From contig JBAWWI010000002.1 of the NCBI GenBank assembly GCA_037146835.1, positions 4,302 to 68,301 of the forward strand: 64,000 nucleotides of DNA, given 5' to 3'. Under the pieces are notes generated by a model. It saw only the letters and a program-made list of their open reading frames with translations, was not told the DNA's origin and ran no database searches. A program made the translations under genes and the position numbers. Of this stretch, positions 1,514 to 36,408 are shown in pieces. The stretch's first letter is position 1. Every line of letters starts with the position of its first letter. Source of the stretch: Actinomycetes bacterium (GTDB lineage: Bacteria > Actinomycetota > Acidimicrobiia > IMCC26256).

Positions 1514-2620
1514 CTATCCCCGTATGTCGTTACCCTCGATTATCTCAACGCGATCAAGTAGAGCGTCGAGTGCCTCTAGCGAGCTCTCAGCTAGCGGCCA
1601 CCCCTCACTCGGCGGAGCAAATGCGAGCAACGCGCTAAGCGGATCATGCGCTCCGCGCGCGGAGACAGCGTGGACGGGATACCGACCCGCGGCAAGGATC
1701 GATATGTCGGTTCCGAGTCGAGGAAATCCCTCAGCAAGGCTCATTAAAGAAGTCGGGTCAAACGAGACTCCAGGGGCGCCAACAACAACTTCGTGCGTCA
1801 CCGGATCAAGCCAGATCGCAGGCGAGTCGGCGACAATAATTCCGGCCTTCGCTAACCGATGCTCGCGACCATTCAATCTCGCCGCCGCCTGCAGGAGCAT
1901 TACAGGCTCCCCCGGATTGGTGCCCGCCTTAGCAACAACTAGGCCAGGGATTGCAACAACACCCGCTCCAGTTAGGTCTCCATGGAACGCTAGGTAAGGG
2001 GCGAGCGCATTGAGAACGCGCGATGCATTGCGCCCCGAGACCACAACCTCGCCGCCTCTATAGAACAGATGTAGCGGCTTGATTCCGCGGGCCTCGCCGT
2101 CGCTCTTCGCAAGTGAGAGTGAGAATGCCGGTCGGGCATCGTGGGCACCTATTGGTATGTCGCTTGGGGCCACTACGTAACTCGAGAACGCAGCCTCAAC
2201 AGCGGCACATACATCCGGAGTGTCGAATCCGAGGATTACTAGGTGGTCCCCAAACTCCAGAACGGTTCTAAAAGCACGCGGTTGGGCCTCCATGCAACTC
2301 TCGCAGTCGAGGTCATACGCAGTTAGTACACGCGGGAGCGAATGCCCGGCAGCCGATTCGCCTTCATCGGACACAAGCAGCCCGGAAGACTTGAACTCTC
2401 CTATCGCCTTCTCTACATCAGATTGAAGAGTGCCGGGCTCTGCTCCGAAAACCTCTGCTAGATCATCCGCAATCTCATCTGCGCTTGACTCACCATCGCA
2501 GCACTGCCATACAAGGGCAGCGACAGGGTTGAGCAGGTGCAACTCGTCGCCAAGTACGAGTACAGCCTCACCGTCAAAAAATTGGGAGCGCACGAGAGGT
2601 GAAGATCGGGGATTACTCAA
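1514..2620 (-). CDS. PqqD/RRE domain fused to a CxxC linker and a degenerate HprK-like (pseudokinase) domain
   Basis: N-terminal about 85 aa is PqqD-like (GEAVLV...LHLLNPVAALVWQCCDG...EIADDLAEVF...DVEKAIGEFKSSGLL). DCESC motif follows. C-terminal domain parallels the upstream kinase but lacks Walker A. TTG start overlaps the upstream TGA (TTGA); GGAAGG RBS. Confidence 0.75.
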   Translation of the reverse strand: MSNPRSSPLVRSQFFDGEAVLVLGDELHLLNPVAALVWQCCDGESSADEIADDLAEVFGAEPGTLQSDVEKAIGEFKSSGLLVSDEGESAAGHSLPRVLTAYDLDCESCMEAQPRAFRTVLEFGDHLVILGFDTPDVCAAVEAAFSSYVVAPSDIPIGAHDARPAFSLSLAKSDGEARGIKPLHLFYRGGEVVVSGRNASRVLNALAPYLAFHGDLTGAGVVAIPGLVVAKAGTNPGEPVMLLQAAARLNGREHRLAKAGIIVADSPAIWLDPVTHEVVVGAPGVSFDPTSLMSLAEGFPRLGTDISILAAGRYPVHAVSARGAHDPLSALLAFAPPSEGWPLAESSLEALDALLDRVEIIEGNDIRG

Positions 2621-3558
2621 GGTGCCTTCCCGGAAGACTCGTGCGAGAGTAGATCAAGTACAACCTGACACGCTTCGTCCAAATCTCCACTAGTCAATGC
2701 AACGCAGCGCGCACCAGATGTAACTGCAGCGAGCGTATCCATGACAAGTTCCGTATCTCGAGCGAGATGGTAGGAGTGCTGCCCCACGCTATACATCGCA
2801 GCAGCTGGGCTTAGAACCTCTATTTTTGTAGGTGCACTTGGGACATACGTTGGGAGCACAACCACTGAAGTGCGGGCGGCCGCAGAGACTGAGCCTTCTC
2901 TAAGCGAAGACGCTGGAACTAGGACCAACTCTCCAAGCATCGAGACCATCTCCGGATCAGAGATAGGCGATACCTCCGAAAGAATCTCTCCGATGTTCGC
3001 ACCAACGGAGACGTACTTAGCGTAAGGCTGCACCATTAACCCACCGGGAGAGATCGCCACCGCCTCATCCGTGAGATAACCGAGGCCATATCGCGCAACG
3101 AGAGCAACTGCGAGCGTTGATTTCCCGCTCCCTTGAGGGCCAACAATTATTGCAGCGCGTTCTCCACTCGTTACTGCTGCAGAGTGGAGAAGCGTATAGC
3201 CAGGCGTGTTCTCCAGTGCTTGCCGGTTCGCCTCCCATAAAAGGTGAGATACGACGATTGATAATGCCGGAGCAGAGACAACCTGGAGTGCGTCAAGGTG
3301 TAGGTGCCACGTCACGATTCCGTTGAAATCAGGCGGGCTCTGCGTGACGGTAAATACATGCTCAGGCTCCATATCGCTCAGTAGAGGAGCCCATAAAAGC
3401 TCGGCAAGGTCGGCAACTAAAGCCGCCTCAGAGCGAACGTGCGCAGAGAAACCAAGGAGATTGAAGGTTCGAGAGGTGGCGGCAAAATCTGGGGACCTAA
3501 GCCGCGTACGAATGCGCTCACCCACGGCGAAAGCGCCCCCTGCGAGGTTGCGTGTCAT
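2617..3558 (-). CDS. HPr kinase-related ATP-binding kinase (HprK-related / lasso-cluster kinase type)
   Basis: LLHSAAV (His), Walker A GPQGSGKST, YLTDEAV. The ORF extends to 3681 but overlaps the upstream gene; ATG 3558 or GTG 3525 is the likelier start. Confidence 0.8.
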   Translation of the reverse strand: MTRNLAGGAFAVGERIRTRLRSPDFAATSRTFNLLGFSAHVRSEAALVADLAELLWAPLLSDMEPEHVFTVTQSPPDFNGIVTWHLHLDALQVVSAPALSIVVSHLLWEANRQALENTPGYTLLHSAAVTSGERAAIIVGPQGSGKSTLAVALVARYGLGYLTDEAVAISPGGLMVQPYAKYVSVGANIGEILSEVSPISDPEMVSMLGELVLVPASSLREGSVSAAARTSVVVLPTYVPSAPTKIEVLSPAAAMYSVGQHSYHLARDTELVMDTLAAVTSGARCVALTSGDLDEACQVVLDLLSHESSGKAP

Positions 3559-5077
3559 CCTGAAAACGCTCGTATGGGTTGTCGATCGAATGCTGCTCTG
3601 CTTCGTGAGCAGCATAAGGATTTGGAGCGACTTCGTTTGAGTACGGGTTATCTCTTGGAGCGACCAGCGAAGAAGGATCAAGGGCCTTGAACTCCTTGCG
3701 CGGCTCCACCTTGCGCTCAGGCAAACAGAGCAGAACCAAGAAGAACGGCATCACCTGAACGCGCTGCCTCGCGAGAATCCCGAAGTTTGAGAATGCGGAG
3801 AATGCATATATGAATGCGAGAACAATCCCAAATGAGTAAGAGACATAAGGCGAATATCTCATCTGATTCCAGAGATTTCGTAGCCTCCTACGAGATTTCC
3901 AGGTGAGCCACATCAGAAACACCCCCTCGCCCGCGCTCAATAATGACTGAACGTTTCCTACCTCAAACGGGAACGGCCGATAAAGGATCGTCACTGTGGC
4001 GAGCGGGAAATTTGCAGGATTGTTCGTGACGCTTACGGGAGAGAACGTAGATCCAGCCTCCTTTGAGGTGCGGCCCTCCGCATCTTGAAGGGTTTGGTTT
4101 ACCGTCTCCTGGTTGAGTCCTGACACACCAAAAAACTGAGAGGTCTGGCCGATCAGCACGGTGCCTACGACAAAGAGGATGCCAAACACGAAGACCCTCG
4201 CGAAGGGAGTACGCGCTGAGGGGCTTCGTGACTTGCCTAGCCCTGCGGCGAGCACCATCCCAACGAAGGTAATGAGCGCTACGTGAGGGCGAAGCAGCCC
4301 GGCGCTCACGAGGCCCAGTGCAGCAATCGGAAATCCCAGCAACGCTCCTTTGCTCATAACCCTTGCGACACCGTAGGAGATAAGGCCAAGACTAAAGACG
4401 GCCCATGCATCCTTACCTAGAGCCGATGGCCAATAAATCATCGAAGGTAGGAACAGAAGCAAAAACGCGTACCTTCGAGCATCGCCCTCCGGAACGGCCC
4501 GCATAAATGCTCGCCATAGCAAGAGCGCACCAATAAAAGCTGACCAACCGAAGAACATAAATGCCCCAGGTTTTGAGGGCCCAGCAATGGCATAGAGAAC
4601 TCCGGTGACGCTGCGGAGAAACCCTGTACCGCTAAATTTTCCAACATCGTAAGTGAAGTTCAGAGATCGATACATCGGAGCTAAGAACTTGCCCCAGAGG
4701 TCATACTCCGTTGCGTCCGCTATACCTGAGTAGAAAACGCTAGTCATCAACATGCGCAGAAGCGACCCAACGAGCTTCATCGAGAAGCCCGCCATCACCA
4801 AGAGATATGTCTCGTTGCTTCGGTCGTAGTGCGCGAGCCGTCGCGCTATGAGGTGAGTGATGCCTAGCAATACGAGCATGTCTACCGCTGCTAGCGCCCA
4901 CTCGGTGGACGCAGTAGCGACCGCCATCACCAACGCGACACCGATTGCTGTATACCCACTGAACATCGCTACCCGCATCAGCCAGGGGCGTTTAAGCAGA
5001 TCTGCGGATTCGACTGTTCCGAGAGATAGAGACTCTGGGTCTTCTCCAGGGGAAGACGAGGGGGGCAGGTTGGTCAT
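3518..5077 (-). CDS. Multi-pass membrane protein, probable Wzy-like polymerase/ligase, with a cytoplasmic tail carrying 3 NPY repeats
   Basis: About 10-11 hydrophobic segments, an extracytoplasmic loop, and LGKD, RPH and RQR motifs. Lies in the wzc operon; ATG overlaps the upstream stop (ATGA). The Wzy assignment rests on topology and context only. Confidence 0.55.
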   Translation of the reverse strand: MTNLPPSSSPGEDPESLSLGTVESADLLKRPWLMRVAMFSGYTAIGVALVMAVATASTEWALAAVDMLVLLGITHLIARRLAHYDRSNETYLLVMAGFSMKLVGSLLRMLMTSVFYSGIADATEYDLWGKFLAPMYRSLNFTYDVGKFSGTGFLRSVTGVLYAIAGPSKPGAFMFFGWSAFIGALLLWRAFMRAVPEGDARRYAFLLLFLPSMIYWPSALGKDAWAVFSLGLISYGVARVMSKGALLGFPIAALGLVSAGLLRPHVALITFVGMVLAAGLGKSRSPSARTPFARVFVFGILFVVGTVLIGQTSQFFGVSGLNQETVNQTLQDAEGRTSKEAGSTFSPVSVTNNPANFPLATVTILYRPFPFEVGNVQSLLSAGEGVFLMWLTWKSRRRLRNLWNQMRYSPYVSYSFGIVLAFIYAFSAFSNFGILARQRVQVMPFFLVLLCLPERKVEPRKEFKALDPSSLVAPRDNPYSNEVAPNPYAAHEAEQHSIDNPYERFQDDTQPRRGRFRRG

Positions 5078-6201
5078 GGCCCGCTCCGCGACTCGCGCAG
5101 TGCCGCAGAGCCTCGCCTAAATCGTGCCCAATACGACGAGTCTCGACCCGATATGTGTTGACGGCTAGGTAGGAGCAGGGCACGCATGTAGGCAAGTTTG
5201 CCAGTGATCCCAGGCACCGCGGTTACACCCGCTGCAACCTGAGTTGCATAGGAACGGTTCTCTGACGTGTAAGCCCTCAGAGCTCGCTCCTCGTAGCCAC
5301 TCGGTGCGTATGAATTGGCCCAGGTAGATGCATCATGCGGGGGGAGGTCAAGCCTCTGCCAAGCGAGGGCGATTGCCCGCGCGATCACAACCTCAGCCCT
5401 CCACTCTCGCGCAGTCACAATTGCTTGATAGAAGTCAACTTGATTCACCAAGAGCATCTCTGCAATGTCTCGTAGCGCAACTAGCCGAGCCGATACGTCT
5501 CCGAGAGCAGCGTGAAAGCAAGCATGCATAAATCGGTGTTGACGCGAGATAGTACGCAGAATCACGCTTCCAATCTCAAACTCCTCCACATCTTTGAAGA
5601 GCGAATCCAGATTGAGAGTAAGGCCGAACGGCCCCGTGCTTAGAGTTCGATGGAGATCAATCTGCAGTCCATCTTCATAAGAGAAGCAGGCACCTTTCCC
5701 AAAACGACTATCAAATCCTTTGCTCACCTCGGCAAATCGACGTCTTGCTCCGGCTGCAGTAAGGATTTCAGATGCTGCGTCAAATGAATCCGCCGGCACC
5801 AATAGATCCACGTCTCCAAATGCACGCCAAGACGGGTCCGGATAATCGAGGTGAGCGACCGCAGAACCCTTCAGGACCCGCACATCGATGCCTGCAAGAC
5901 TCATCTCGGAGTAGACCTCTAAGAGTCGCCTCTCAAGTACCACTGCAAGACTCATCGAACGCCCGTGGTCTTGAGTGATCTCAGTTCTCTGGAGCTCCGA
6001 GGCAGTTAAAGAACCGCTATCAAGAGCGCACGCGGCGAGCGGAACTAGCCGTTCTAGAAGAAGCCCTCTATGAAACTCCGCCCACTCCGCTTCCGACATC
6101 TGCTCTAAGTCTCTGATCTCTTCTTGAGCGTGCGCGTGGAGTCCTACACCAGCTACAAAACCCAGCATCGAGGTTCGCTCTTCTGATCCCACAGGGTTCA
6201 T
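5074..6201 (-). CDS. Uncharacterised nucleotidyltransferase family protein (NTP_transf_5-like)
   Basis: Signature VRVLKGSAVAHLDYPDPSWRAFGDVDLLVP, later IDLHR; ATGA-coupled to both neighbours. Confidence 0.85.
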   Translation of the reverse strand: MNPVGSEERTSMLGFVAGVGLHAHAQEEIRDLEQMSEAEWAEFHRGLLLERLVPLAACALDSGSLTASELQRTEITQDHGRSMSLAVVLERRLLEVYSEMSLAGIDVRVLKGSAVAHLDYPDPSWRAFGDVDLLVPADSFDAASEILTAAGARRRFAEVSKGFDSRFGKGACFSYEDGLQIDLHRTLSTGPFGLTLNLDSLFKDVEEFEIGSVILRTISRQHRFMHACFHAALGDVSARLVALRDIAEMLLVNQVDFYQAIVTAREWRAEVVIARAIALAWQRLDLPPHDASTWANSYAPSGYEERALRAYTSENRSYATQVAAGVTAVPGITGKLAYMRALLLPSRQHISGRDSSYWARFRRGSAALRESRSGP

Positions 6202-6473
6202 GAGACCACCAACGCTTCTGTAGCGATCAACTCGTCTATAAGCATCTCGACATCTCGTGAAACCACTTCCAAATCTTCGCCGAACAACTCAGCAAGGCTC
6301 TGCGAAATAGCTTCCCTAGAAGACCAATCCAAGAGAAGGTCCCAGACTAAGCATGCTGAGCCCTCGAGGAGTCGCGGTTCAAGGTCTCTCGGCGCAAGAA
6401 TCACTACGCCGAAGGGACCCGAGCGAGAGATCACTTTGGGCGATTGCTTGATGACAGCAGAGGCTTTTGCCAC
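6198..6473 (-). CDS. Stand-alone PqqD-family protein (RiPP recognition element-like)
   Basis: 91 aa with the PqqD pattern GVVIL...LEGSACLVWDLL...EAISQSLAELFG...VSRDVEMLIDELIATEAL; GTG start. Confidence 0.8.
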   Translation of the reverse strand: MAKASAVIKQSPKVISRSGPFGVVILAPRDLEPRLLEGSACLVWDLLLDWSSREAISQSLAELFGEDLEVVSRDVEMLIDELIATEALVVS

Positions 6474-6496
6474 GCCCAGAACCTCGCTAGTTAGAG

Positions 6497-8404
6497 TCAG
6501 GCACTCGGGTCGTCGAACGCATCGATAGAGGCAGAATCCCCTTGAATTGATGCAGCGACGCCAGCGTGCTCTGGGTCAGGTTTCCGGCGAACCGTACCTG
6601 CTCCGTTCGTTGGCTTACGCCATGGGAAGAGGCGTGACATTTTGGGGACTTCTCCAGGGTGAGCGTATCCGTACCCATAACCGTAATAACCGTAGTAACC
6701 GTAATAACCGGCACGAGCTCCATGCTCCGCACCCACAAGCACAATTCCCACAGTTGTTGCTTCAAGACGACGCAGAAGATCCGAGGCCGCCACTACACCA
6801 CCGCGTCGGGTCCAACCAGCGCGGACCATCAATACCGTTGCATCGCAGAAAGTGGAGAGCTCGGCTGCATCGTTGGCTAGGAGAATGGGCGGCGAGTCAA
6901 CGATCACAAGGTCTGCTATTTCACGCCCTAAGCGCGCAGCAACTTTGACCATTTCGATTGCGGTACCCGGATCGGTTCGAGTGGGTGCACTTGCGATGAA
7001 CCGAACATTAGGTATTCCAGTCTCTTGAGCGACTGCCAATACATCAGCGACTGTTCCTTGGTAAGGAATATCTGTGAGGTTGGGGCTAATAGCGCCTGAG
7101 AAATATTTATGCATCTGCGGCCGGCGGAAGTCGCCGTCGATAAGGAGTACTGATATGCCCGTCTCTGCGAAGGCTGCGGCAATATTTACAACCGAGATTG
7201 ATTTGCCCTCCGCAGGGCCGGGGGATGTAACCAAGAGAACACGGAGCGGAGTCGCCTCTGTCTCAGATGTACCCGACAATCCTGGGCGACTATTCGCTGG
7301 GTGCCTCTGCCACATCGCTACTAGTGAAGTGCGGAAGGAGCGATAGGCCTCCGCCATTAGTGACGTCGGATCCACTGCCGTTGTTACTTGGAAGCGCAGA
7401 GCTCGATCAAGGTTCATCACTGGGATCTCGGCAATAACCGGCATTCTTGCCGCACCCTCGGTGCCTGGAACGTCACGGATTCGAGCACTAAGAATCTCGA
7501 GTAGAAGAAGAATTCCAAGCCCTATGATGAAACCAATAGCGGCACCAAATAGGAGTCGTTGAGACTCGCTCGTTGCACCTTTGGCACTGGTAACAAGGAT
7601 CGTCGCTCGCGCCTTTGTCGCAGCCTCGAGTGTTGTAAGTCCACTCGTCTGAGGGCCTGCATCCTGTAGATTCGATATCCCAGAGTCAGCTGTTGCGAGT
7701 TTACGGAGGGCAGCTTCGCGACGGATACCTAGGGAGTCGGAGCCCGATGCGCTCAGCCCGGGGGCAGCCAATTGTGAATCGATTTGGCGTATAAGGGTCT
7801 CGGAGTTGTTACGAGAGAGTGTTAACCCAAAGATCTGCTCCTCATATTGCTTCTTGCCTAGCTCATCAACGTAGCCAACGAGTTTCGCAGCGAAGAGATT
7901 CGCAACTTTTGCAGCGAGTTTTGCATCGCCGACCTGAGCGGTGATTGCTAACGAACCCGTTGCAGGGTCTGGGGTTGCTGAGGCCTTGATAAAGCCATTA
8001 ACTCCAAGCTGAACCTGACCACTACCAGCGCTGACAGCCCTTCCAGACTTCTTACAGTCAGGGGAGGTCGCATCTGCGCCAGTCGCCGTACATTTATTAG
8101 CGTTGGCACTCTGAATCTGCGGCCAACGCACTTCGTCAATCGCCTCGGCTACTCGTTTTGGGACCTCACCGGTAGTCATAAGGAGCGCTAAGCGGTCGTA
8201 GTCGCGTCCATTTACCGAGGTATTCGCAGAACCATTCGAGATAAGTGTTGTGGTCGCGCGGAAACTCACGCCGGGTCGATTCGCACGAATCGTCTCAGAG
8301 CTACTCGGTCGCGTCAGGAGCGCGAAAGTCATCGCAATGACCACCGTGACGAGGAGAACCCACCAACGTCGACGAACGATCCTTAGATAATCGGCTGGTC
8401 GCAT
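6497..8404 (-). CDS. wzc: Wzc-like polysaccharide co-polymerase / BY-kinase (Wzz-type region fused to CpsD/CapB kinase)
   Basis: Two TM segments; Walker A SPGPAEGKS, A' LLIDGDFRRP, B VIVDSPP; Tyr cluster GYYGYYGYYGYGYGY. Start placed at ATG 8404. Confidence 0.9.
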   Translation of the reverse strand: MRPADYLRIVRRRWWVLLVTVVIAMTFALLTRPSSSETIRANRPGVSFRATTTLISNGSANTSVNGRDYDRLALLMTTGEVPKRVAEAIDEVRWPQIQSANANKCTATGADATSPDCKKSGRAVSAGSGQVQLGVNGFIKASATPDPATGSLAITAQVGDAKLAAKVANLFAAKLVGYVDELGKKQYEEQIFGLTLSRNNSETLIRQIDSQLAAPGLSASGSDSLGIRREAALRKLATADSGISNLQDAGPQTSGLTTLEAATKARATILVTSAKGATSESQRLLFGAAIGFIIGLGILLLLEILSARIRDVPGTEGAARMPVIAEIPVMNLDRALRFQVTTAVDPTSLMAEAYRSFRTSLVAMWQRHPANSRPGLSGTSETEATPLRVLLVTSPGPAEGKSISVVNIAAAFAETGISVLLIDGDFRRPQMHKYFSGAISPNLTDIPYQGTVADVLAVAQETGIPNVRFIASAPTRTDPGTAIEMVKVAARLGREIADLVIVDSPPILLANDAAELSTFCDATVLMVRAGWTRRGGVVAASDLLRRLEATTVGIVLVGAEHGARAGYYGYYGYYGYGYGYAHPGEVPKMSRLFPWRKPTNGAGTVRRKPDPEHAGVAASIQGDSASIDAFDDPSA

Positions 8405-8820
8405 GCTATTTCCCGAATCCCCCAACTAAAAACTTTAAGATGCGCCACGCTAAGTCGCGCGTCTTGCCACGCACTGTAGTGGCCTAATTGCCTAGTGGCT
8501 ACCCGTAAAAACTACTCCCCTCTACCCCCAGGAAGTACCGCGGCCCGCCAATTGGGCATTACGCCTCAGTCTGGGTGCGGTCCCTAGAGAATTACCAGAG
8601 ATGCCTTCTACTCAGAACGGCGAATTCAGGCTCTCGAGTTCTCTCCGCTCGCAGAGACGCTATGGCCGAAATTGAGGGGAACGGTCATTACCAGTATTTG
8701 CCCAGAGGTATCGTTTCGGATAATCCCGCTAGCTCTCTCGGGCTGTCACTAAAGATTGGTTCGGTCCAGGTTGGCACCACTTGAGTTCTCGGGTTCTCGA
8801 GCAACCAGCAGGAGAGTTCT

Positions 8821-29294: not shown

Positions 29295-30508
29295 GCCGAC
29301 CGCGCCTCATACACGTAACCACTGCGGATATAAGCCTCTCTCTCCTTCTAGGGCCTCAACTGCGCGCTTTCTCCGAAGCTGGTTATGAAGTAATCGGCGC
29401 ATCGGCTCCAGGCCCATTTACCGAGGAGCTTGAGTCTTGGGGCATTGAGCACCGACCACTCAAACACGCGACCCGCTCAATGGCACCCCATAAGGATGCC
29501 GCTGCAATGGGCGAGCTCTACAAACTCTTCAGGGAACTTCGCCCTGAGATCGTCCACACACATAATCCAAAACCAGGTCTCTACGGACGTATCGCCGCGC
29601 GAGCCGCGAGGGTCCCCGTAGTGGTCAATACGGTGCATGGCCTATATGCGCTACCTGAGGACAAGCTCGCAAAACGATCGGTTGTCTACTCGCTAGAGCG
29701 CCTCGCATCTATGTGCTCGGATGCTGAGCTAATTCAGAACCCCGAAGACATAGCAACCCTGCTAAAGATTGGGGTGCCTAGTAAGAAGATTCGTCTCCTC
29801 GGCAACGGTGTAGACCTAACGCGCTTCAAGCCGATCAACGACGGCGATCGAGAGTCATTCGAAGGAACAGCGGATACCCAGCCTGAAACACGGAGTCAAA
29901 GCCTGCGCGACAAATTGCGAGGCGAATTAGGGGTCGGAGCATCGACGGTGCTCTGTGGCGTCGTTGGTCGCCTGGTCTGGGAGAAGGGGTACCAAGAAGT
30001 ATTTGAAGCTGCAGAGGCGATCAAGCGTCTCGGGATTGATGCTGTATTTGTAGTAGTTGGGCCGAGAGACCCCGAGAAATCAGATGGCGTAGGCGAGAGG
30101 GCAATCGCAGCAGCGGAGGCCAACGGCATTCGATTCCTAGGCATGCGCTCAGATGTCGAAGACCTGTACAGCGCTATGGATCTCTACGTGCTCGCGTCTT
30201 ATCGCGAGGGATTTCCGAGGTCCGCTATGGAGGCGGCAGCATCTGGCTTGCCTGTAATTGCAACTGACATCCGCGGCTGTCGCCAAGTAGTTGATCCAGG
30301 TCTAACCGGCTTGCTCGTGCCTCCCCGAGACTCTCAAGCACTCACATCGGCAATCTTGGAGATCGTTCAAGACCCGATCAAACGCCTTGAGATGGGTAGG
30401 CGCGCTCTATCAAAAGCCAGAGCAGAGTTTGACCATCGACGCGTAATCGATATCACCCTAGAAACCTACGACCGACTTCTAGCCGATAAAGGTGTTCGTC
30501 CTCGATGA
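29291..30508 (+). CDS. GT4 glycosyltransferase
   Basis: HTHNPKPG, GRLVWEKG, SYREGFPRSAMEA, TDIRGC. Confidence 0.92.
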   Translation: MSRPRLIHVTTADISLSLLLGPQLRAFSEAGYEVIGASAPGPFTEELESWGIEHRPLKHATRSMAPHKDAAAMGELYKLFRELRPEIVHTHNPKPGLYGRIAARAARVPVVVNTVHGLYALPEDKLAKRSVVYSLERLASMCSDAELIQNPEDIATLLKIGVPSKKIRLLGNGVDLTRFKPINDGDRESFEGTADTQPETRSQSLRDKLRGELGVGASTVLCGVVGRLVWEKGYQEVFEAAEAIKRLGIDAVFVVVGPRDPEKSDGVGERAIAAAEANGIRFLGMRSDVEDLYSAMDLYVLASYREGFPRSAMEAAASGLPVIATDIRGCRQVVDPGLTGLLVPPRDSQALTSAILEIVQDPIKRLEMGRRALSKARAEFDHRRVIDITLETYDRLLADKGVRPR

Positions 30509-31131
30509 GCGAGAAGCCTATGTCCTCTGATTATTTGATTCGCTTAGGCACGCAGAGAGATGCGACTGCTTCGTCGGTCCTGCATTCGTCGCGCATCACT
30601 GAAGGGTTTCTTCCGACACTTGGTCCTCGATTCCTTGGGAGGCTATATCGGCGCATTGCGCTTGACCGAGACTCTTTCTTAATGGTCGCCGAGAAGGACG
30701 GGGAGATTCTCGCAATGGCCTCGTGTACTAATGACCTTGGTCATCTCTATAGAGCCTTTATTCTGCGCGACGGGTTAATCGCTACAGCAAGTGCCCTTTT
30801 TCCGATTATTCGATCCCTACCGCGTGTTTTCGAGACCCTTAAGTACCCATCACAGGGTGGCCCAGAACTCGCTAAGACTCCCCTGCCCGCGGCGGAGATT
30901 CTTGCGGTTGCAGTTAGAGAAGGATCATCAGGGATCGGAATCGGTCGCCAAATTATGGTTGCTGTGATTGCAGAGTTCACGCGCAGAGGCGTCGAGAGTT
31001 TCAAAGTTATTACTAGCTCTGATAATGCAGCCGCTCTGGCTCTCTACCGGTCTGTAGGTTTTCGCGACACCGCGGCACTAGAGGTGCACGAAGGAACAGA
31101 ATCACTGGCGCTTGTTTGGAGCAGCGAGTGA
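30505..31131 (+). CDS. GNAT-family acetyltransferase, possibly acting on an amino sugar
   Basis: AVAVREGSSGIGIG, DNAAALALYRSVGF. Confidence 0.8.
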   Translation: MSEKPMSSDYLIRLGTQRDATASSVLHSSRITEGFLPTLGPRFLGRLYRRIALDRDSFLMVAEKDGEILAMASCTNDLGHLYRAFILRDGLIATASALFPIIRSLPRVFETLKYPSQGGPELAKTPLPAAEILAVAVREGSSGIGIGRQIMVAVIAEFTRRGVESFKVITSSDNAAALALYRSVGFRDTAALEVHEGTESLALVWSSE

Positions 31132-32102
31132 GCCCATTACTTGGTCTGGTCACTGCGTTCTTGGTCACTTCCGCGGTGACACCCATCGCTATTCGTGTGG
31201 CGCATCGCACTGGCATGGTTGATAGGCCAGGAGCTTTAAAGTTTCAGAGCACCCCGGTTGCTTACCTCGGTGGGGTTGCGGTCTTTGCTGGAGTAGCTGG
31301 TGCGCTCGCGGCGACAACTCCACGGGTGCTCATACCTCTTGCTCTTGCGTTATTACTTGGACTCTTCGATGACCGCCTAGATATTTCCCCTCGCATTCGT
31401 GTTCTCTGCGAGGCTGTAATTGCTCTAATCGGCGGAGCATTAATACCGGCCACAGGCGGCGCTTTGGGAGTTGCAATTACCGCACTCCTCATTCTCGGGC
31501 TACTGAACGCCGTGAACCTCCTAGATGGTCTAGACGGTCTTGCCGCTGGCGTCTGCTCTGCCTCCGCTATTGGCTTTGCATTCCTATCTGAGAACCCTCG
31601 ATTGGCGGACCCCCGTTTGCTGGCGTTATCGCTGCTTGGGGCACTAATTGGATTCATAATATTCAATCGCCCACCTGCACGGATCTATTTAGGCGACGCC
31701 GGCGCATATCTCATAGGTGTAGCGCTTGCGATACTCGCGGCCCTAAGCCTTAATGGGGCGGGTAACACCTCGGCGAGCGTTGCTATCTGGGCGGCACTTC
31801 CTCTAATCGTTGCAGTGCCGATTCTCGACACCCTGGTTGCGATTCTGCGCAGACTCAGGGCGGGAGACCCAATATTCTCTGGGGATCGAAGCCACATCTA
31901 CGACCAATTATGCGATCGCGGCATCCCTGCTCAGCGAGTTCTGATGATTATGGTCTCGGCCCAATGCATTTTGGTGCTCCTTGGAATTCTCGCCTCACGC
32001 CTGAGCAGTTATGCAAGTGTGTCCGTGATGCTCCTGAGCGCCGGTATCCTCATTGCGATCACGGTAAGGGCTGGGTTCCTAACCACAGACGGAGGACCAT
32101 AA
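31128..32102 (+). CDS. WecA/MraY-family polyprenyl-phosphate HexNAc-1-phosphate transferase (initiating enzyme)
   Basis: GLFDD, NAVNLLDGLDGLA, IYLGDAG, DRSHIY; GTG overlaps the upstream TGA. Confidence 0.88.
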   Translation: MSPLLGLVTAFLVTSAVTPIAIRVAHRTGMVDRPGALKFQSTPVAYLGGVAVFAGVAGALAATTPRVLIPLALALLLGLFDDRLDISPRIRVLCEAVIALIGGALIPATGGALGVAITALLILGLLNAVNLLDGLDGLAAGVCSASAIGFAFLSENPRLADPRLLALSLLGALIGFIIFNRPPARIYLGDAGAYLIGVALAILAALSLNGAGNTSASVAIWAALPLIVAVPILDTLVAILRRLRAGDPIFSGDRSHIYDQLCDRGIPAQRVLMIMVSAQCILVLLGILASRLSSYASVSVMLLSAGILIAITVRAGFLTTDGGP

Positions 32103-33269
32103 GTGAAGAAGCTTGCAGTGCTCGGCGGCCAAAAGTCATTCCCTGATGGCGTCGCGTTTGTGCGCCCTCCAGCTCCACCGTTGGATGAGGTAGTAGCACG
32201 CCTTGCCCCTTCATACTCCCAAGGCTCCCTAACTAATGGACCTCTAGTACGAGAGTTAGAGGACTCAGTCGCCGAGCGACTCGGTGTCCGTCATGTTGTC
32301 GCAGTCTCATCATGCACGACAGGCTTGATGCTCTCCGTTGCAGGGCTTGCTCAATTTGGAGAGATCAACGGTCCGGTCATCATGCCGTCGTTTACATTCT
32401 CTGCCGGCCCTCATGCAGTCGCGTGGAGCAACCTCGGCGTGCGCTTCGTCGAGTGCGATCCCTTAAGTTTTCAAATTGACCTTGCTCACACCTCGATGCA
32501 TCTTGAGGGCGCAGGCGCAATTATGGCCACGCATGTTTTCGGTGCACCGTGTAGACCTGAGCAGGTAGAGGCAATGGGCAAGAGCGCTGGCATTCCAGTT
32601 CTCTTTGATGCCGCTCATGGTTTTGGAGCTCTTCGCAATGGACGCCCGCTCGGAGGATTCGGTGAGGTTGAGGTATTCAGCATGACCCCGACAAAACCTC
32701 TAGTCGCAGGTGAGGGCGGTCTTGTCTGCACCGATAGAGACGATCTTGCTGAGTATCTGCGCCTCGCACGTGAGTACGGAAACCCTGGAAACTACAACAC
32801 TCGTTTTATTGGCTTAAACGGTCGTCTATCTGAGATGCATGCAGCCATTGCCCTGGCCTCAATTTCACATATTGATGAGCACCTCGAGACGCGCAGGCGC
32901 CTTGCCGGGAGATATGCAGATGGAATCCTCGCAATCCCAGGGGTCAGGACTCAAGCAGTAGATAGTGAAGACCTATCTACCTATAAAGACTTCACGATCG
33001 CAATAGACGCCGGAGATTTCGGTGTTAGCAGAGACCAACTTGTTACAGCCTTAAGCGCAGAAGGGATCGATACGCGTAATTATTTTGATCCCCCCGTGCA
33101 CCGACAAGATTCCCATGCCTCGCGTTCTCCATCTGAGCTTCCGGTAACAGATGCTGTCTCAAAGACAGTTGTGAGTCTCCCGCTCTACCCCGCGCTAACC
33201 GACGACGTGGTCGATCAAATTGTCGAGATCATCTCGAGTGTGGGGCAGAGCGCAGAGAGCCTCAACTAA
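32103..33269 (+). CDS. DegT/DnrJ/EryC1/StrS PLP-dependent sugar aminotransferase
   Basis: VSSCT, FDAAH, FSMTPTKPL (Schiff-base Lys), GEGG, SLPLYP. Confidence 0.92.
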   Translation: MKKLAVLGGQKSFPDGVAFVRPPAPPLDEVVARLAPSYSQGSLTNGPLVRELEDSVAERLGVRHVVAVSSCTTGLMLSVAGLAQFGEINGPVIMPSFTFSAGPHAVAWSNLGVRFVECDPLSFQIDLAHTSMHLEGAGAIMATHVFGAPCRPEQVEAMGKSAGIPVLFDAAHGFGALRNGRPLGGFGEVEVFSMTPTKPLVAGEGGLVCTDRDDLAEYLRLAREYGNPGNYNTRFIGLNGRLSEMHAAIALASISHIDEHLETRRRLAGRYADGILAIPGVRTQAVDSEDLSTYKDFTIAIDAGDFGVSRDQLVTALSAEGIDTRNYFDPPVHRQDSHASRSPSELPVTDAVSKTVVSLPLYPALTDDVVDQIVEIISSVGQSAESLN

Positions 33270-34311
33270 CTAAATTTTCCGCAGCCTGCCTGCGAGAAGA
33301 TCGCGAGATGCGGCGCCTGCCGAGCGGAAGTGCCACCCCAACGAATACCCCCGCGGCGAGCGCTGGCACTAAACGGACAATCGCCTCTCCGGCACCAAAC
33401 GCCATTCCCGCTACTCGTGATGCCCACATGGCAAGAATCAACTGCGCCCCAAGAATTGCGAGAGCTCTACGTGTTCGGTTCCAGCCGAGTTCAAATCGAA
33501 ACCAAACTCGCAGGCGGTGACCAATAGGGATAGTTGCAAATAGCGCAAGCGCCCCGACTGATCCCACAATGGAACCAGGCCTCGCCCAACCTTCGTGCAC
33601 TACCACCCAGAGCATTAGACCAATAGCGGCAGCGGAGCCACCCTCCCCTAGGCGAGCGAGTCGGAAAGGGAGCCCAAGAAGCGCAAGGGGAATGGCGACG
33701 CCAAGCAGGACAAGCAGCAATTCAGTATCTGGAACCGTTGAGTAGACCGCTCCAATTGTGAAGAGCCACATGACCGGACCCAGCCCGAGTCGACCTAGGT
33801 CCCGGTCGGTCTCAGCAGCTAGCGGCCCAAGTATCGCGGTTCCGAGAATAATGAGCCACGGAACCCAGCTCGGCCCGAAGAAGGTCTGCCCGGCTACGAG
33901 TCGCCAAGCACCTGGTAGGGCGAGAATCATTCCTGCCGGTAGCGGAGCCGGGGTCAGCCCAGCGATTGCTACCCCTAGCCAAACAAGGGCTAGCCCAAGC
34001 AATACCCCGCTCGGCACAGCGGGGATATTTCCCCCAGCCTTCACCATCGGCGGCAACGACCTCTGCAGAGCATCTAGGGCCATTATCGAGGCAACCACGA
34101 ATGCTGGACCGACTAGCCCAGGGAGTCTGCTCGGGGAGGCTCGAATACGGAGCCGCCTAAGCCATCTTCGACCAACGGCAGAGCGGAGCCAGACGGCAAA
34201 TAGGGCCAAAACTCCAGCCCCGGCAGCGGCTACTAGGCCCCTAAGCGCTCCAATATGGAGTTCCGGGGCCTCGAGTGCAGTTCTAATTGGATCAAACATT
34301 GGCCCCACCAA
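33262..34311 (-). CDS. Hypothetical multi-pass membrane protein
   Basis: 349 aa, very hydrophobic, VPDTE motif; family not recognised; start uncertain. Confidence 0.55.
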   Translation of the reverse strand: MVGPMFDPIRTALEAPELHIGALRGLVAAAGAGVLALFAVWLRSAVGRRWLRRLRIRASPSRLPGLVGPAFVVASIMALDALQRSLPPMVKAGGNIPAVPSGVLLGLALVWLGVAIAGLTPAPLPAGMILALPGAWRLVAGQTFFGPSWVPWLIILGTAILGPLAAETDRDLGRLGLGPVMWLFTIGAVYSTVPDTELLLVLLGVAIPLALLGLPFRLARLGEGGSAAAIGLMLWVVVHEGWARPGSIVGSVGALALFATIPIGHRLRVWFRFELGWNRTRRALAILGAQLILAMWASRVAGMAFGAGEAIVRLVPALAAGVFVGVALPLGRRRISRSSRRQAAENLVS

Positions 34312-34512
34312 CCTCAGGCTTAACTCATTATTTGACGCTTCGTAGCATCGTATTCACTCGCGGTGAAATTAGGTCTTGCGCTCACGGTTTCTTGCGGTGA
34401 GAATAGACGCAGTTTCTAGGGGGACCGGGCAGTCTGCTTTGAATTGGTTTCGTTATTGATTCCAATTTAATTCGGATCCCCCTCCGGGAAGTGCTATCGG
34501 GGGGAGTTGAGT

Positions 34513-36408
34513 ATGGCATTGGTCTCATCATCAATTGTGCCCGCGCGGCTGCGGTCAAAGAGAAGCCTGAGAATCATCACTGATAGCGCGGCATGGGTTT
34601 TCGCTATTTATGCAGCGGTATTGCTTCGCCTTGATTTTGATATGACCCGAGTCGAGGCATTTCGCATAGCTGCGGTTATCCCTCTCGCATGGGCTCTTCA
34701 GTTCCTTTTCGGATGGCTATTCGGGCTCTACCGAGGCTTCTGGATCAATGGATCCTTCGACGAAGTTGCGGCCCTTGCCCGAACAATTGGTGCCGTAACC
34801 GGGGCTCTATTCATCTATGACCTTGTAATCCCCGGCGGTCGCCCAGCACCTGCTAGCGCAATTATCGCTGCAGGATTCCTAGCCCTCGTTGGCGCAGGCG
34901 GGGTGCGTTACCTCGCTCGACATGCAATTGATCGACGACGCCGCTCGCGAGATGAAGGCCTCCCTCGCGCAATTATCTTTGGAACCGGTGAGTGTGGAGT
35001 TCGAATGATCAACTCCTTGCTCTTTGAGGACTCCAGCCCTTGCATCCCTGTTGCACTTCTCGACGATGACCGTGAAAAGCAGAACCTCACCGTTAAGGGC
35101 CTTCGCGTCATTGGCGGACGTGCATCGATGTTTGATGCCGCTAGGCGCTTCAACGCGAGTGTGTTGGTAATCGCAATACCGACCGCCGAGGGTTCAACAA
35201 TTCGCGAGCTCACAGCTCTGGCCGATCTCGCCGAGCTCGAGGTGCTAGTAGTTCCGCCAGTCACTGAGCTATTCGGTGGTCAGGTACGCGCCACCGACCT
35301 GCGCGAGCCAACCGAGGCCGACCTTCTCGGTCGACGCATCATTGAGACCGACCTTGAGCAAGCGGCCTCCTACTTGCAAGATCGTGTTGTTCTTGTAACA
35401 GGGGCTGGAGGGTCAATCGGCTCAGAGCTATGCAGGCAGATATCGCGATTTGGGCCACGCCGACTCGTGATGCTTGACAGAGACGAGTCCGGCCTACACC
35501 AGGTGCAACTTTCACTAGAGGGCCGGGCGCTTCTTGACTCTCCCGACCTAATACTCCTCGACATTCGAGACCGCGATCGCGTTGCAGAATTATTCGGCGA
35601 GATTCGCCCCGACGTGGTCTTCCACGCTGCAGCCCTCAAGCACCTACCGCTTCTGCAGGCCCATCCAGTAGAGGCACTTAAATCCAACGTATGGGGATCT
35701 CTCTCAGTACTTGATGCCGCAGCCGCTGCTGGCGTAACACGCTTTGTAAACATCTCAACCGATAAAGCCGCCAACGCATGCAGCATCCTTGGGTACTCCA
35801 AACGCATAGCCGAGGGCCTCACCTCATACTTTGGGCTGCGTCACCCTGGTACTTACCTAAGTGTTCGCTTCGGGAATGTTCTAGGCAGCAGAGGCTCAGT
35901 TCTTACCGCTTTCAGAGCTCAGATTGAGGCTGGAGGACCGGTCACGGTCACTCATCCAGATGTAACCCGCTACTTCATGACCATTGAGGAAGCAGTCCAA
36001 TTAGTAATCCAAGCCGGCGCTATCGGTCACGATGGCGAGGCGCTCGTACTTGACATGGGCGAGCCCGTAAAGATCTCGGATGTAGCACGCAGGCTCTGCG
36101 CCAATCATGTACCAGAGATTCCGATTGTCTTCACCGGACTGCGCCCGGGCGAGAAGATGCATGAGGAGCTCTTCGCAGATGGAGAGGCATCCCACCAATC
36201 TGATCACGAATTAATTCGCTACGTCAGGGTCCCCGATCTAGACCCAACATTTGTGCGTGATGTCGATGCGAAGGTAAGCGGAAAAGACATGGCCTCGCTC
36301 CTTGAGTTCCTTGCTCGCACAATGACCGTTGCACTCGGTGATGAGCCGGTGCCGAGCGATGTCTTTGAGGCTCCAAGGGTCGATCGAGTAGCGGACGGCG
36401 CACTGTAA
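34513..36408 (+). CDS. PglF/WbpM/CapD-like membrane-anchored UDP-HexNAc 4,6-dehydratase
   Basis: 4 N-terminal TM segments, [52 protein letters not shown]. Confidence 0.92.
   Translation: MALVSSSIVPARLRSKRSLRIITDSAAWVFAIYAAVLLRLDFDMTRVEAFRIAAVIPLAWALQFLFGWLFGLYRGFWINGSFDEVAALARTIGAVTGALFIYDLVIPGGRPAPASAIIAAGFLALVGAGGVRYLARHAIDRRRRSRDEGLPRAIIFGTGECGVRMINSLLFEDSSPCIPVALLDDDREKQNLTVKGLRVIGGRASMFDAARRFNASVLVIAIPTAEGSTIRELTALADLAELEVLVVPPVTELFGGQVRATDLREPTEADLLGRRIIETDLEQAASYLQDRVVLVTGAGGSIGSELCRQISRFGPRRLVMLDRDESGLHQVQLSLEGRALLDSPDLILLDIRDRDRVAELFGEIRPDVVFHAAALKHLPLLQAHPVEALKSNVWGSLSVLDAAAAAGVTRFVNISTDKAANACSILGYSKRIAEGLTSYFGLRHPGTYLSVRFGNVLGSRGSVLTAFRAQIEAGGPVTVTHPDVTRYFMTIEEAVQLVIQAGAIGHDGEALVLDMGEPVKISDVARRLCANHVPEIPIVFTGLRPGEKMHEELFADGEASHQSDHELIRYVRVPDLDPTFVRDVDAKVSGKDMASLLEFLARTMTVALGDEPVPSDVFEAPRVDRVADGAL

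Follow-up and report, generated by a model that had tools for sequence, protein, structure and literature searches.

The locus described here is an operon of six minus-strand genes at the start of a glycan island of approximately 37 kb in a freshwater actinobacterium, in which a Wzc-type tyrosine autokinase and a polytopic membrane protein are encoded together with two peptide-binding domains, an HprK-like kinase and a nucleotidyltransferase. The window – the whole stretch of DNA that was analyzed, 64,000 nt at positions 4,302-68,301 of contig JBAWWI010000002.1 (assembly GCA_037146835.1) – belongs to an Actinomycetes bacterium of the IMCC26256 lineage of the Acidimicrobiia; Actinobacteria bacterium IMCC26256 is the closest relative bearing a name, and the window DNA was found again in lake-water metagenomes. 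The six open reading frames (ORFs) occupy positions 1514-8425 and form a tightly coupled operon encoding, in order, Wzc, a stand-alone RiPP recognition element (RRE1; RiPP, ribosomally synthesized peptide with post-translational modifications), the nucleotidyltransferase, the membrane protein (here called MEMB), the kinase, and a second RRE fused to a domain designated X (RRE2-X). RRE domains are regarded as hallmarks of peptide natural-product pathways. A first-pass annotation of this DNA had placed six minus-strand genes in one operon, joined by a 23-bp gap, ATGA, ATGA, a short overlap and TTGA; all six ORFs lie where it put them, and the junctions read off the sequence are the same, the overlap being 41 nt. 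The ATGA joining the RRE1 and nucleotidyltransferase genes and the TTGA joining the kinase and RRE2-X genes couple each pair translationally. Promoter and terminator scans gave counts no higher than in shuffled sequences.

The first gene (6497-8404, minus strand) encodes a 635-residue Wzc-type bacterial tyrosine kinase (BY-kinase) that matches TIGR01007 at 8e-30 with 103.9 bits, just under the cut-off of 108, and also matches Wzc/EpsG models; its ATG start at 8404 was picked by alignment with orthologs. It has two membrane segments, which flank a loop of approximately 270 residues with no Pfam Wzz match, and a cytoplasmic P-loop domain with Walker A (SPGPAEGKS), A′ (VLLIDGDFRRP) and B (LVIVDSPP) motifs, followed by a C-terminal tyrosine cluster, GYYGYYGYYGYGYGY (6665-6709). 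Of 17 Wzc proteins checked from loci with all six genes, 16 have the identical cluster, which was also detected as a 9-bp tandem repeat. The protein does not end there, and a tail runs approximately 55 residues past the cluster. Nine residues into it lies the motif SRLFPWRKP (6611-6637), the local form of hxPW[RK], which also fits WxxP, and beyond this are a variable Ser/Thr-rich stretch and an acidic C-terminus, AFDDPSA (6500-6520).

RRE1 (6198-6473, minus strand) is a PqqD-like peptide-binding protein of 91 residues (PF05402, 1.3e-7). Its single NCBIfam match at E<=0.1 is to the lasso PqqD chaperone model (2.8e-5, under the cut-off of that model), and a PDB sequence search with both RREs matched PqqD and TfuB1 structures, too weakly for pocket residues to be read, with TfuB1 the closest to RRE1. 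The adjacent gene (5074-6201, minus strand) encodes a nucleotidyltransferase-fold enzyme of 375 residues, homologous to PsmN and LppN (PF14907, NTP_transf_5, 1.1e-32), in which the catalytic motif KGS...GDVDLL (5797-5817) is intact and the DxD aligns with that of Bacillus-type homologs from lasso clusters; the corresponding residues D134 and D136 are essential in PsmN (PMC6993621). The HprK-like Ser kinase (2617-3558, minus strand; 313 residues from the ATG at 3558) matches TIGR04352 (HprK_rel_A) at 3.5e-24, although its 85.4 bits fall well under the cut-off of 200 and it is therefore a relative rather than an equivalog of that family. It has a Walker A motif (GPQGSGKST, 3115-3141), a conserved His (LLHSAAV) and YLTDE, with H125, GKST and DE invariant throughout its own family, and it matches HPr kinase structures weakly.

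RRE2-X (1514-2620, minus strand; 368 residues) has a PqqD domain at residues ~16-87 (PF05402, 4.6e-13) and the X domain at residues ~96-368. With the PqqD parts cut from both, X aligns to the kinase family with an hhalign probability of 94.8% (E 5e-8), but it reads QAAAR--LNGRE where the kinases have GPQGSGKST, and lacks both the His and the TDE. X thus appears to be a P-loop-less homolog of the kinase fold, and 'RRE-pseudokinase' is a fair label for the fusion. The protein has an invariant CxxC (2294-2305), and its AlphaFold2 model is poor (pLDDT 45). The X family comprises 184 representatives, and X is a separate gene in loci L008, L012 and L017. It is also found in proteins of 540-590 residues (P0202, P0205, P0218, P0234, P0241 and others) arranged as PqqD, a thioredoxin-like domain (NWSPGCGYC) and X, and a Walker A motif is present in none of the 27 X-domain sequences inspected; the PqqD-thioredoxin-X architecture hints that RRE-linked redox or adaptor proteins are more widespread as a family.

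MEMB (3518-5077, minus strand) is a polytopic membrane protein of 519 residues and the best conserved protein of the operon. It belongs to a large unnamed family of more than 300 homologs, all named 'hypothetical' and none with a Pfam domain; MEMB itself has no Pfam or NCBIfam match, and the best hit of a PDB sequence search was an unrelated channel (E 3.3). The top Foldseek matches of its AlphaFold2 model (pLDDT 80) are enzymes of the GT-C glycosyltransferase fold (ALG9, STT3, ArnT, ALG12, PIG-M, PMT and AftB), although these are weak (E 0.07-0.7, TM scores 0.3-0.44), and neither Wzy nor WaaL is among the matches of the Foldseek PDB search. D121, in a loop past the third helix, is invariant. 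The earlier label 'Wzy-like' is thus unverified, and the model points weakly to a GT-C-like protein rather than a demonstrable Wzy; MEMB may nevertheless be a polymerase. A metagenome scan seeded with MEMB shows it to be a core protein of actinobacterial polysaccharide loci, mostly directly after Wzc or beside genes for GT4 glycosyltransferases, and in dozens of these loci there is no RRE, nucleotidyltransferase or kinase gene. Past its last predicted helix, MEMB has a C-tail (3563-3652) with three clade-specific [DN]PY repeats (DNPYSNE, PNPYAAHE and DNPYERF), which may be sites of Tyr phosphorylation by Wzc. As a candidate substrate of the module these repeats were rejected as a better correlate, because their presence does not track that of the six-gene set: they are kept in L086, which lacks it, and are missing both from L088, which has it, and from L123.

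The six genes are found in identical order in approximately 20 independent loci of Acidimicrobiia and other Actinomycetota (L001, L002/L003, L010, L011, L074-L079, L081, L082, L085, L087, L088, L098, L155 and L156), with kinases down to 33-39% identity to that of the window; in related forms (L008/L009, L052 and L025) a BY-kinase gene is adjacent and MEMB is absent. That the module forms part of a polysaccharide operon, as had been claimed, is upheld by the gene neighborhoods, in which its Acidimicrobiia homologs accompany Wzc, MEMB, sulfotransferases and glycosyltransferases, and not the lasso leader peptidase (B2) or cyclase (C). An unsupported neighbor-joining tree places all full cassettes in the MEMB clade closest to the window. 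Because MEMB pairs with Wzc in loci without the module, Wzc-MEMB is the older pair and the module an insertion, with RRE1 and the nucleotidyltransferase inserted between Wzc and MEMB, and the kinase and RRE2-X after MEMB. There are also intermediate arrangements, including L123 (Wzc-RRE-nucleotidyltransferase-GT4-MEMB, without kinase), L144, and the Wzc-nucleotidyltransferase pairs of L108, L118 and L135. In one metagenome-assembled genome (MAG; L154, GCA_046075855.1, and the P0034/P0064 locus) there seem to be two paralogous loci for sulfated glycans, which have a common left arm (sulfotransferase, GT2, Wzt, Wzm, methyltransferase and a PMT_2-like protein), of which one has the six-gene cassette and the other just Wzc-MEMB, followed by a 1466-residue AftD-like GT-C protein.

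The Wzc tail varies with this context. In Wzc proteins of cassette loci, [RQ][LM]xPW[RK] lies 8-14 residues downstream of GYYGYYGYYGYGYGY, followed by a basic, variable Ser/Thr/Pro-rich stretch and usually an acidic D[DE]PWV end, and WxxP is present in approximately 60% of these tails. When the motif was counted with the regular expression [LMIVFW].PW[RKNH] over the last 130 residues of Wzc, it was present in 18 of 23 proteins whose gene is followed by the nucleotidyltransferase gene (absent from five) and in one of the 22 not so followed (absent from 21). L086, which is nested in the cassette clade, has neither the cassette nor the motif and reads RKRFLGGRRKR at this place; the distant Wzc-RRE-nucleotidyltransferase locus L123 reads RLEPWN. 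Because Wzc proteins of cassette loci carry both the invariant tyrosine cluster and hxPW[RK], the Wzc tail is the best candidate for the docking site or substrate of the module, on correlative grounds that in part reflect shared ancestry. In two long-read MAG contigs, L004 (4000-10700) and L155 (2666-4732), the reading frames are disturbed, with cassette genes matching hidden Markov models (HMMs) in two frames or the Wzc tail out of frame, due either to pseudogenization or to insertion/deletion errors in assembly.

Relatives of the kinase occur in two further contexts. The most distant (E above ~1e-8) are in true lasso clusters with cyclase, B2 and the RRE protein B1, in which a sulfotransferase is often beside the kinase and the nucleotidyltransferase may be present or absent; the proposed homology of the trio (RRE, kinase and nucleotidyltransferase) with the tailoring set of lasso clusters is thus well founded. 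Two Bacillus-type lasso clusters, L059 and L072, abut CapA/CapB-like kinases and priming transferases. The other context is that of trio-only loci in Phycisphaerae, Proteobacteria and Chloroflexi, whose neighborhoods are heterogeneous, with ORF picking being crude in such high-GC DNA, and which have no lasso genes except an adjacent cyclase gene in L039. That such trios had been catalogued as an uncharacterized neighborhood is confirmed by the JGI name of one homolog, 'PqqD family protein of HPr-rel-A system'.

Some trio-only loci have candidate substrates of their own. In Phycisphaerae (L015:7580-9650, L016:509-3542 and L024:7712-9277) there are two extra genes by the nucleotidyltransferase gene and the PqqD-kinase pair, lying between them in L015 and L024. 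One is an ORF of 84-89 codons (L015 and L016) with an RR-type signal-like N-terminus containing YxxPxV (VYIAPMV or MYVTPAV) and a Cys-rich C-terminus with weak knottin/conotoxin matches; the second encodes a VKOR-DsbA fusion. These loci look like an undescribed RiPP class in which a disulfide-rich peptide is phosphorylated or capped. Two proteobacterial loci (L025:8731-9423 and L026:8642-9388) encode, directly upstream of PqqD, kinase and nucleotidyltransferase, a protein of 230-248 residues with a Tat-like signal and a conserved CS[IV]SGM[LQ]SGNLS right behind it; this protein is a candidate for a full-length substrate on which the HPr-rel-A system acts.

As had been proposed, there is no lasso cyclase or B2 gene in the window: HMMs built from 21 cyclases (loci L035-L073) and nine B2 proteins had no match at E<=1 among six-frame ORFs of the whole 64,000 nt. 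In nine cassette loci whose long flanks could be inspected for up to 10 kb to each side, no lasso C, B2 or B1-type gene was found. Small ORFs were sought by two strategies in up to 14 cassette loci, and none proved conserved, whether a [Y/W]xxP leader was required or not; the only small-ORF matches across lineages are fragments of a larger conserved gene beside an ABC ATPase gene, probably an ABC-2 permease. Among 47 window ORFs scanned with Pfam, comprising most of those of at least 150 codons, and in the cassette, which has no free coding space, there was no SipW-type peptidase and no MsbA-type exporter, and the sole ABC system is a split Wzm/Wzt-type ABC-2 permease and ATPase. With neither a precursor nor a cyclase, protease or exporter in evidence, the likeliest target of the set is a protein of the export machinery.

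The closest described counterparts are the linear polyphosphorylated peptide (LPP) clusters of Bacilli, in which genes for an RRE, HprK kinase and NTP transferase are joined by those for a SipW-like peptidase and an MsbA exporter; these clusters have no cyclase and lie inside or next to capsule loci with a tyrosine autokinase, their biological role being unknown (Popov et al. 2026, PMC13381572). Contrary to the earlier suggestion that no system of this kind had been characterized, the combination of RRE, HprK kinase and nucleotidyltransferase in capsule loci without a cyclase is thus already known, and the concept is not unprecedented. The operon shares with LPP clusters this discrete trio in a capsule locus, but LPPs have a precursor with a YxxPxVLxHQxIxFETxxS leader as well as the peptidase and exporter, and the small-ORF searches of cassette loci revealed no precursor with this leader. 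Further differences are the two RREs here, one fused to a pseudokinase, the interleaving of the genes with Wzc and the GT-C-like MEMB, the Wzc tail motif, and the actinobacterial host, LPPs being reported as restricted to Bacillota (PMC13381572). The LPP nucleotidyltransferase is inactive away from its native context, and all characterized kinases of the family, LppK and PsmK among them, phosphorylate Ser in peptides and reject Thr or Tyr (PMC13381572).

The paeninodin and pseudomycoidin clusters (PadeK, PsmK and PsmN) likewise have a homologous kinase and nucleotidyltransferase and frequent sulfotransferase neighbors, and the window has their tailoring set of an RRE (B1/PqqD), HprK-like kinase and PF14907 enzyme, but without precursor, cyclase or B2 and with a kinase distant from those associated with lasso clusters. 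The first-pass account of pseudomycoidin agrees with the literature, in that PsmK phosphorylates a C-terminal Ser and PsmN is required for a hexose on the phosphate (PMC6993621). The HPr-rel-A system (TIGR04352, PqqD and PF14907) is an uncharacterized conserved neighborhood with the same three families adjacent, but its trio-only loci are without Wzc, MEMB or the pseudokinase fusion. Compared with Wzc and CapAB, with which it shares the P-loop tyrosine autokinase domain, C-terminal tyrosine cluster and location in a polysaccharide locus, the Wzc protein of the window differs in its ~55-residue tail with hxPW[RK] and in the Ser-kinase, RRE and nucleotidyltransferase genes inserted next to it. 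Literature searches found nothing linking PqqD or RREs to Wzc or exopolysaccharide, and no second modification system for BY-kinases; to our knowledge, none has been described.

We tentatively favor a reading – plausible, but somewhat short of probable – in which a RiPP-type 'dock, phosphorylate, cap' module has been inserted, in a lineage of Acidimicrobiia, around the older Wzc-MEMB pair and acts on a protein of that machinery, with no free peptide involved. More specifically, but more doubtfully, the RREs may read a leader-like motif in the Wzc tail, on which the kinase and nucleotidyltransferase would then install a capped phospho-Ser. Each enzyme would have its own adaptor, with RRE1 serving the nucleotidyltransferase to which it is coupled, and RRE2-pseudokinase pairing with the active kinase and delivering its substrate; natural PqqD-kinase fusions (P0045 and P0052) are taken as support for a hand-off from RRE to kinase. 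The docking site would be the extended cytoplasmic C-tail of Wzc, with hxPW[RK], often together with WxxP as in lasso and paeninodin leaders, and a Ser/Thr-rich 'core-like' stretch behind it; here the kinase would phosphorylate one or several Ser residues, and the nucleotidyltransferase would cap the phosphate with a sugar or nucleotide from the NDP-sugar pool of the locus. The tyrosine-autokinase cycle, which controls how the polymer is assembled and exported, would thereby gain a second regulatory layer.

The first-pass annotation had similarly proposed that the module was co-opted to phosphorylate and then nucleotidylate or phosphoglycosylate an RRE-bound protein or peptide, which could prime, anchor or regulate the polysaccharide, for instance through a glycan-phosphodiester-protein link. 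The placement in a polysaccharide operon supports co-option, and the phosphorylate-then-cap chemistry we infer by homology. The anchor, by contrast, fits the topology poorly: neither a signal peptide nor a membrane segment is predicted for the kinase, the nucleotidyltransferase or the Wzc tail, all of which are presumably cytoplasmic, and regulation of the autokinase is therefore likelier than an anchor for an exported polymer.

Several explanations compete with action on the export machinery. It is possible, although we think it rather unlikely, that the product of the module is a free linear peptide, phosphorylated and perhaps also glycosylated, an actinobacterial LPP counterpart whose precursor is elsewhere or too divergent to be recognized, its placement in a polysaccharide operon being mere co-regulation, as for a biofilm matrix. 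The Bacilli LPP clusters have the same core without a cyclase and lie in capsule loci (PMC13381572), and the small ORF with YxxPxV leader and Cys-rich core beside the Phycisphaerae trios implies that the trio serves free peptides in other phyla. A free peptide is nonetheless hard to reconcile with the failure to find a conserved small ORF in the cassette loci, or a SipW-type peptidase or MsbA-type exporter among the scanned ORFs or in the packed cassette, and the module genes do not form a separate unit but alternate with those of Wzc and MEMB, to which they are translationally coupled.

An improbable alternative is that the substrate is no peptide at all but a sugar, lipid carrier or chain terminus, with the RREs mere protein-protein scaffolds. 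Phosphate-containing chain terminators are used in ABC-transporter polysaccharide pathways, and the island has a Wzm/Wzt exporter and many methyl- and sulfotransferases. PF14907 enzymes are also found beside phosphonate genes (PMC8942020), and the open questions over the PsmN donor and mechanism leave room for such a role. However, retention of two RREs across deep divergence suggests selection on peptide binding, and the characterized kinases of the family all act on peptide Ser (PMC13381572). Least probable, and very unlikely, is that these are trans-acting tailoring enzymes for a lasso cluster elsewhere in the genome. In its favor are the homology of the kinase and nucleotidyltransferase to enzymes that tailor lasso peptides and the sulfotransferases that likewise occur in lasso clusters, but the lasso-associated kinases are the most distant of the relatives, C, B2 and B1-type genes are missing from the window and from the long-flank loci, and stable integration into an operon with Wzc and MEMB over long evolution would be hard to explain.

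There are several observations that weigh against a module acting on the Wzc tail. A strict local correlation of motif and cassette was rejected, being weakened by two loci of the cassette clade: L154, the cassette-less second polysaccharide locus of a MAG that has a cassette elsewhere, keeps VIPWKAP, and L157, with an insertion sequence element by MEMB and no cassette, yet has MVPWQ in its Wzc tail. The five Wzc-nucleotidyltransferase pairs without the motif count in the same direction, and no Ser position is common to all tails. The motif hxPW[RK] differs from the canonical leader [Y/W]xxPx[LVIFA], WxxP is present in only ~60% of the tails, and the link of motif and cassette is confounded by phylogeny, because the cassette loci are one clade of the MEMB tree. 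Moreover, the search for precursors and lasso clusters covered only the window and the cassette loci, and three small metatranscriptomes from a related study yielded essentially no mapped reads.

The remainder of the glycan island (8821-37374), as identified by Pfam scans of window ORFs, includes a Wzm/Wzt ABC-2 exporter, a WecA-type priming transferase and a PMT_2-like membrane protein, together with GT2 and GT4 glycosyltransferases, methyltransferases, four to five sulfotransferases, acetyltransferases and a deacetylase, and genes for a DegT aminotransferase, a CapD/PglF dehydratase and an epimerase. The CapD/PglF-type dehydratase, DegT aminotransferase, GNAT acetyltransferase and WecA-type priming transferase are grouped at 30505-36408, a set that fits a 2,4-diacetamido-trideoxyhexose (bacillosamine-like) sugar at the reducing end; such sugars are also typical of protein-glycosylation pathways. 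Beyond 37.4 kb are map, adk, secY, ribosomal protein genes, tuf and fusA, so that within 66-49600 the island adjoins map-adk-secY and the ribosomal spc/S10 genes; in L001 (19817-20945), infA-rpmJ-rpsM-rpsK follow the cassette locus. The island thus appears to be inserted in the ribosomal super-operon, between map and infA. At its other end, a 56-bp spacer separates the last gene of the operon from a convergent gene for a 463-residue membrane protein, and contains a perfect 15-bp tandem repeat, AACCAGCACCCTCAG, in 2.4 copies (1471-1506).

Two sizeable unnamed families emerge from these comparisons, one being that of MEMB, the GT-C-like protein that accompanies Wzc in actinobacteria, and the other that of the X domain with its missing P-loop. 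If the favored reading is correct, RiPP recognition and tailoring machinery would have been reused to regulate a polysaccharide-export protein, showing that such machinery can target proteins, and would add an extra layer of control to capsule assembly driven by tyrosine autokinases. It could also explain the presence of LPP and paeninodin clusters beside BY-kinase and capsule genes in Bacilli, and the Wzc tail motif provides a testable handle on the question, raised in 2026, of why phosphorylating RiPP clusters co-localize with capsule loci.

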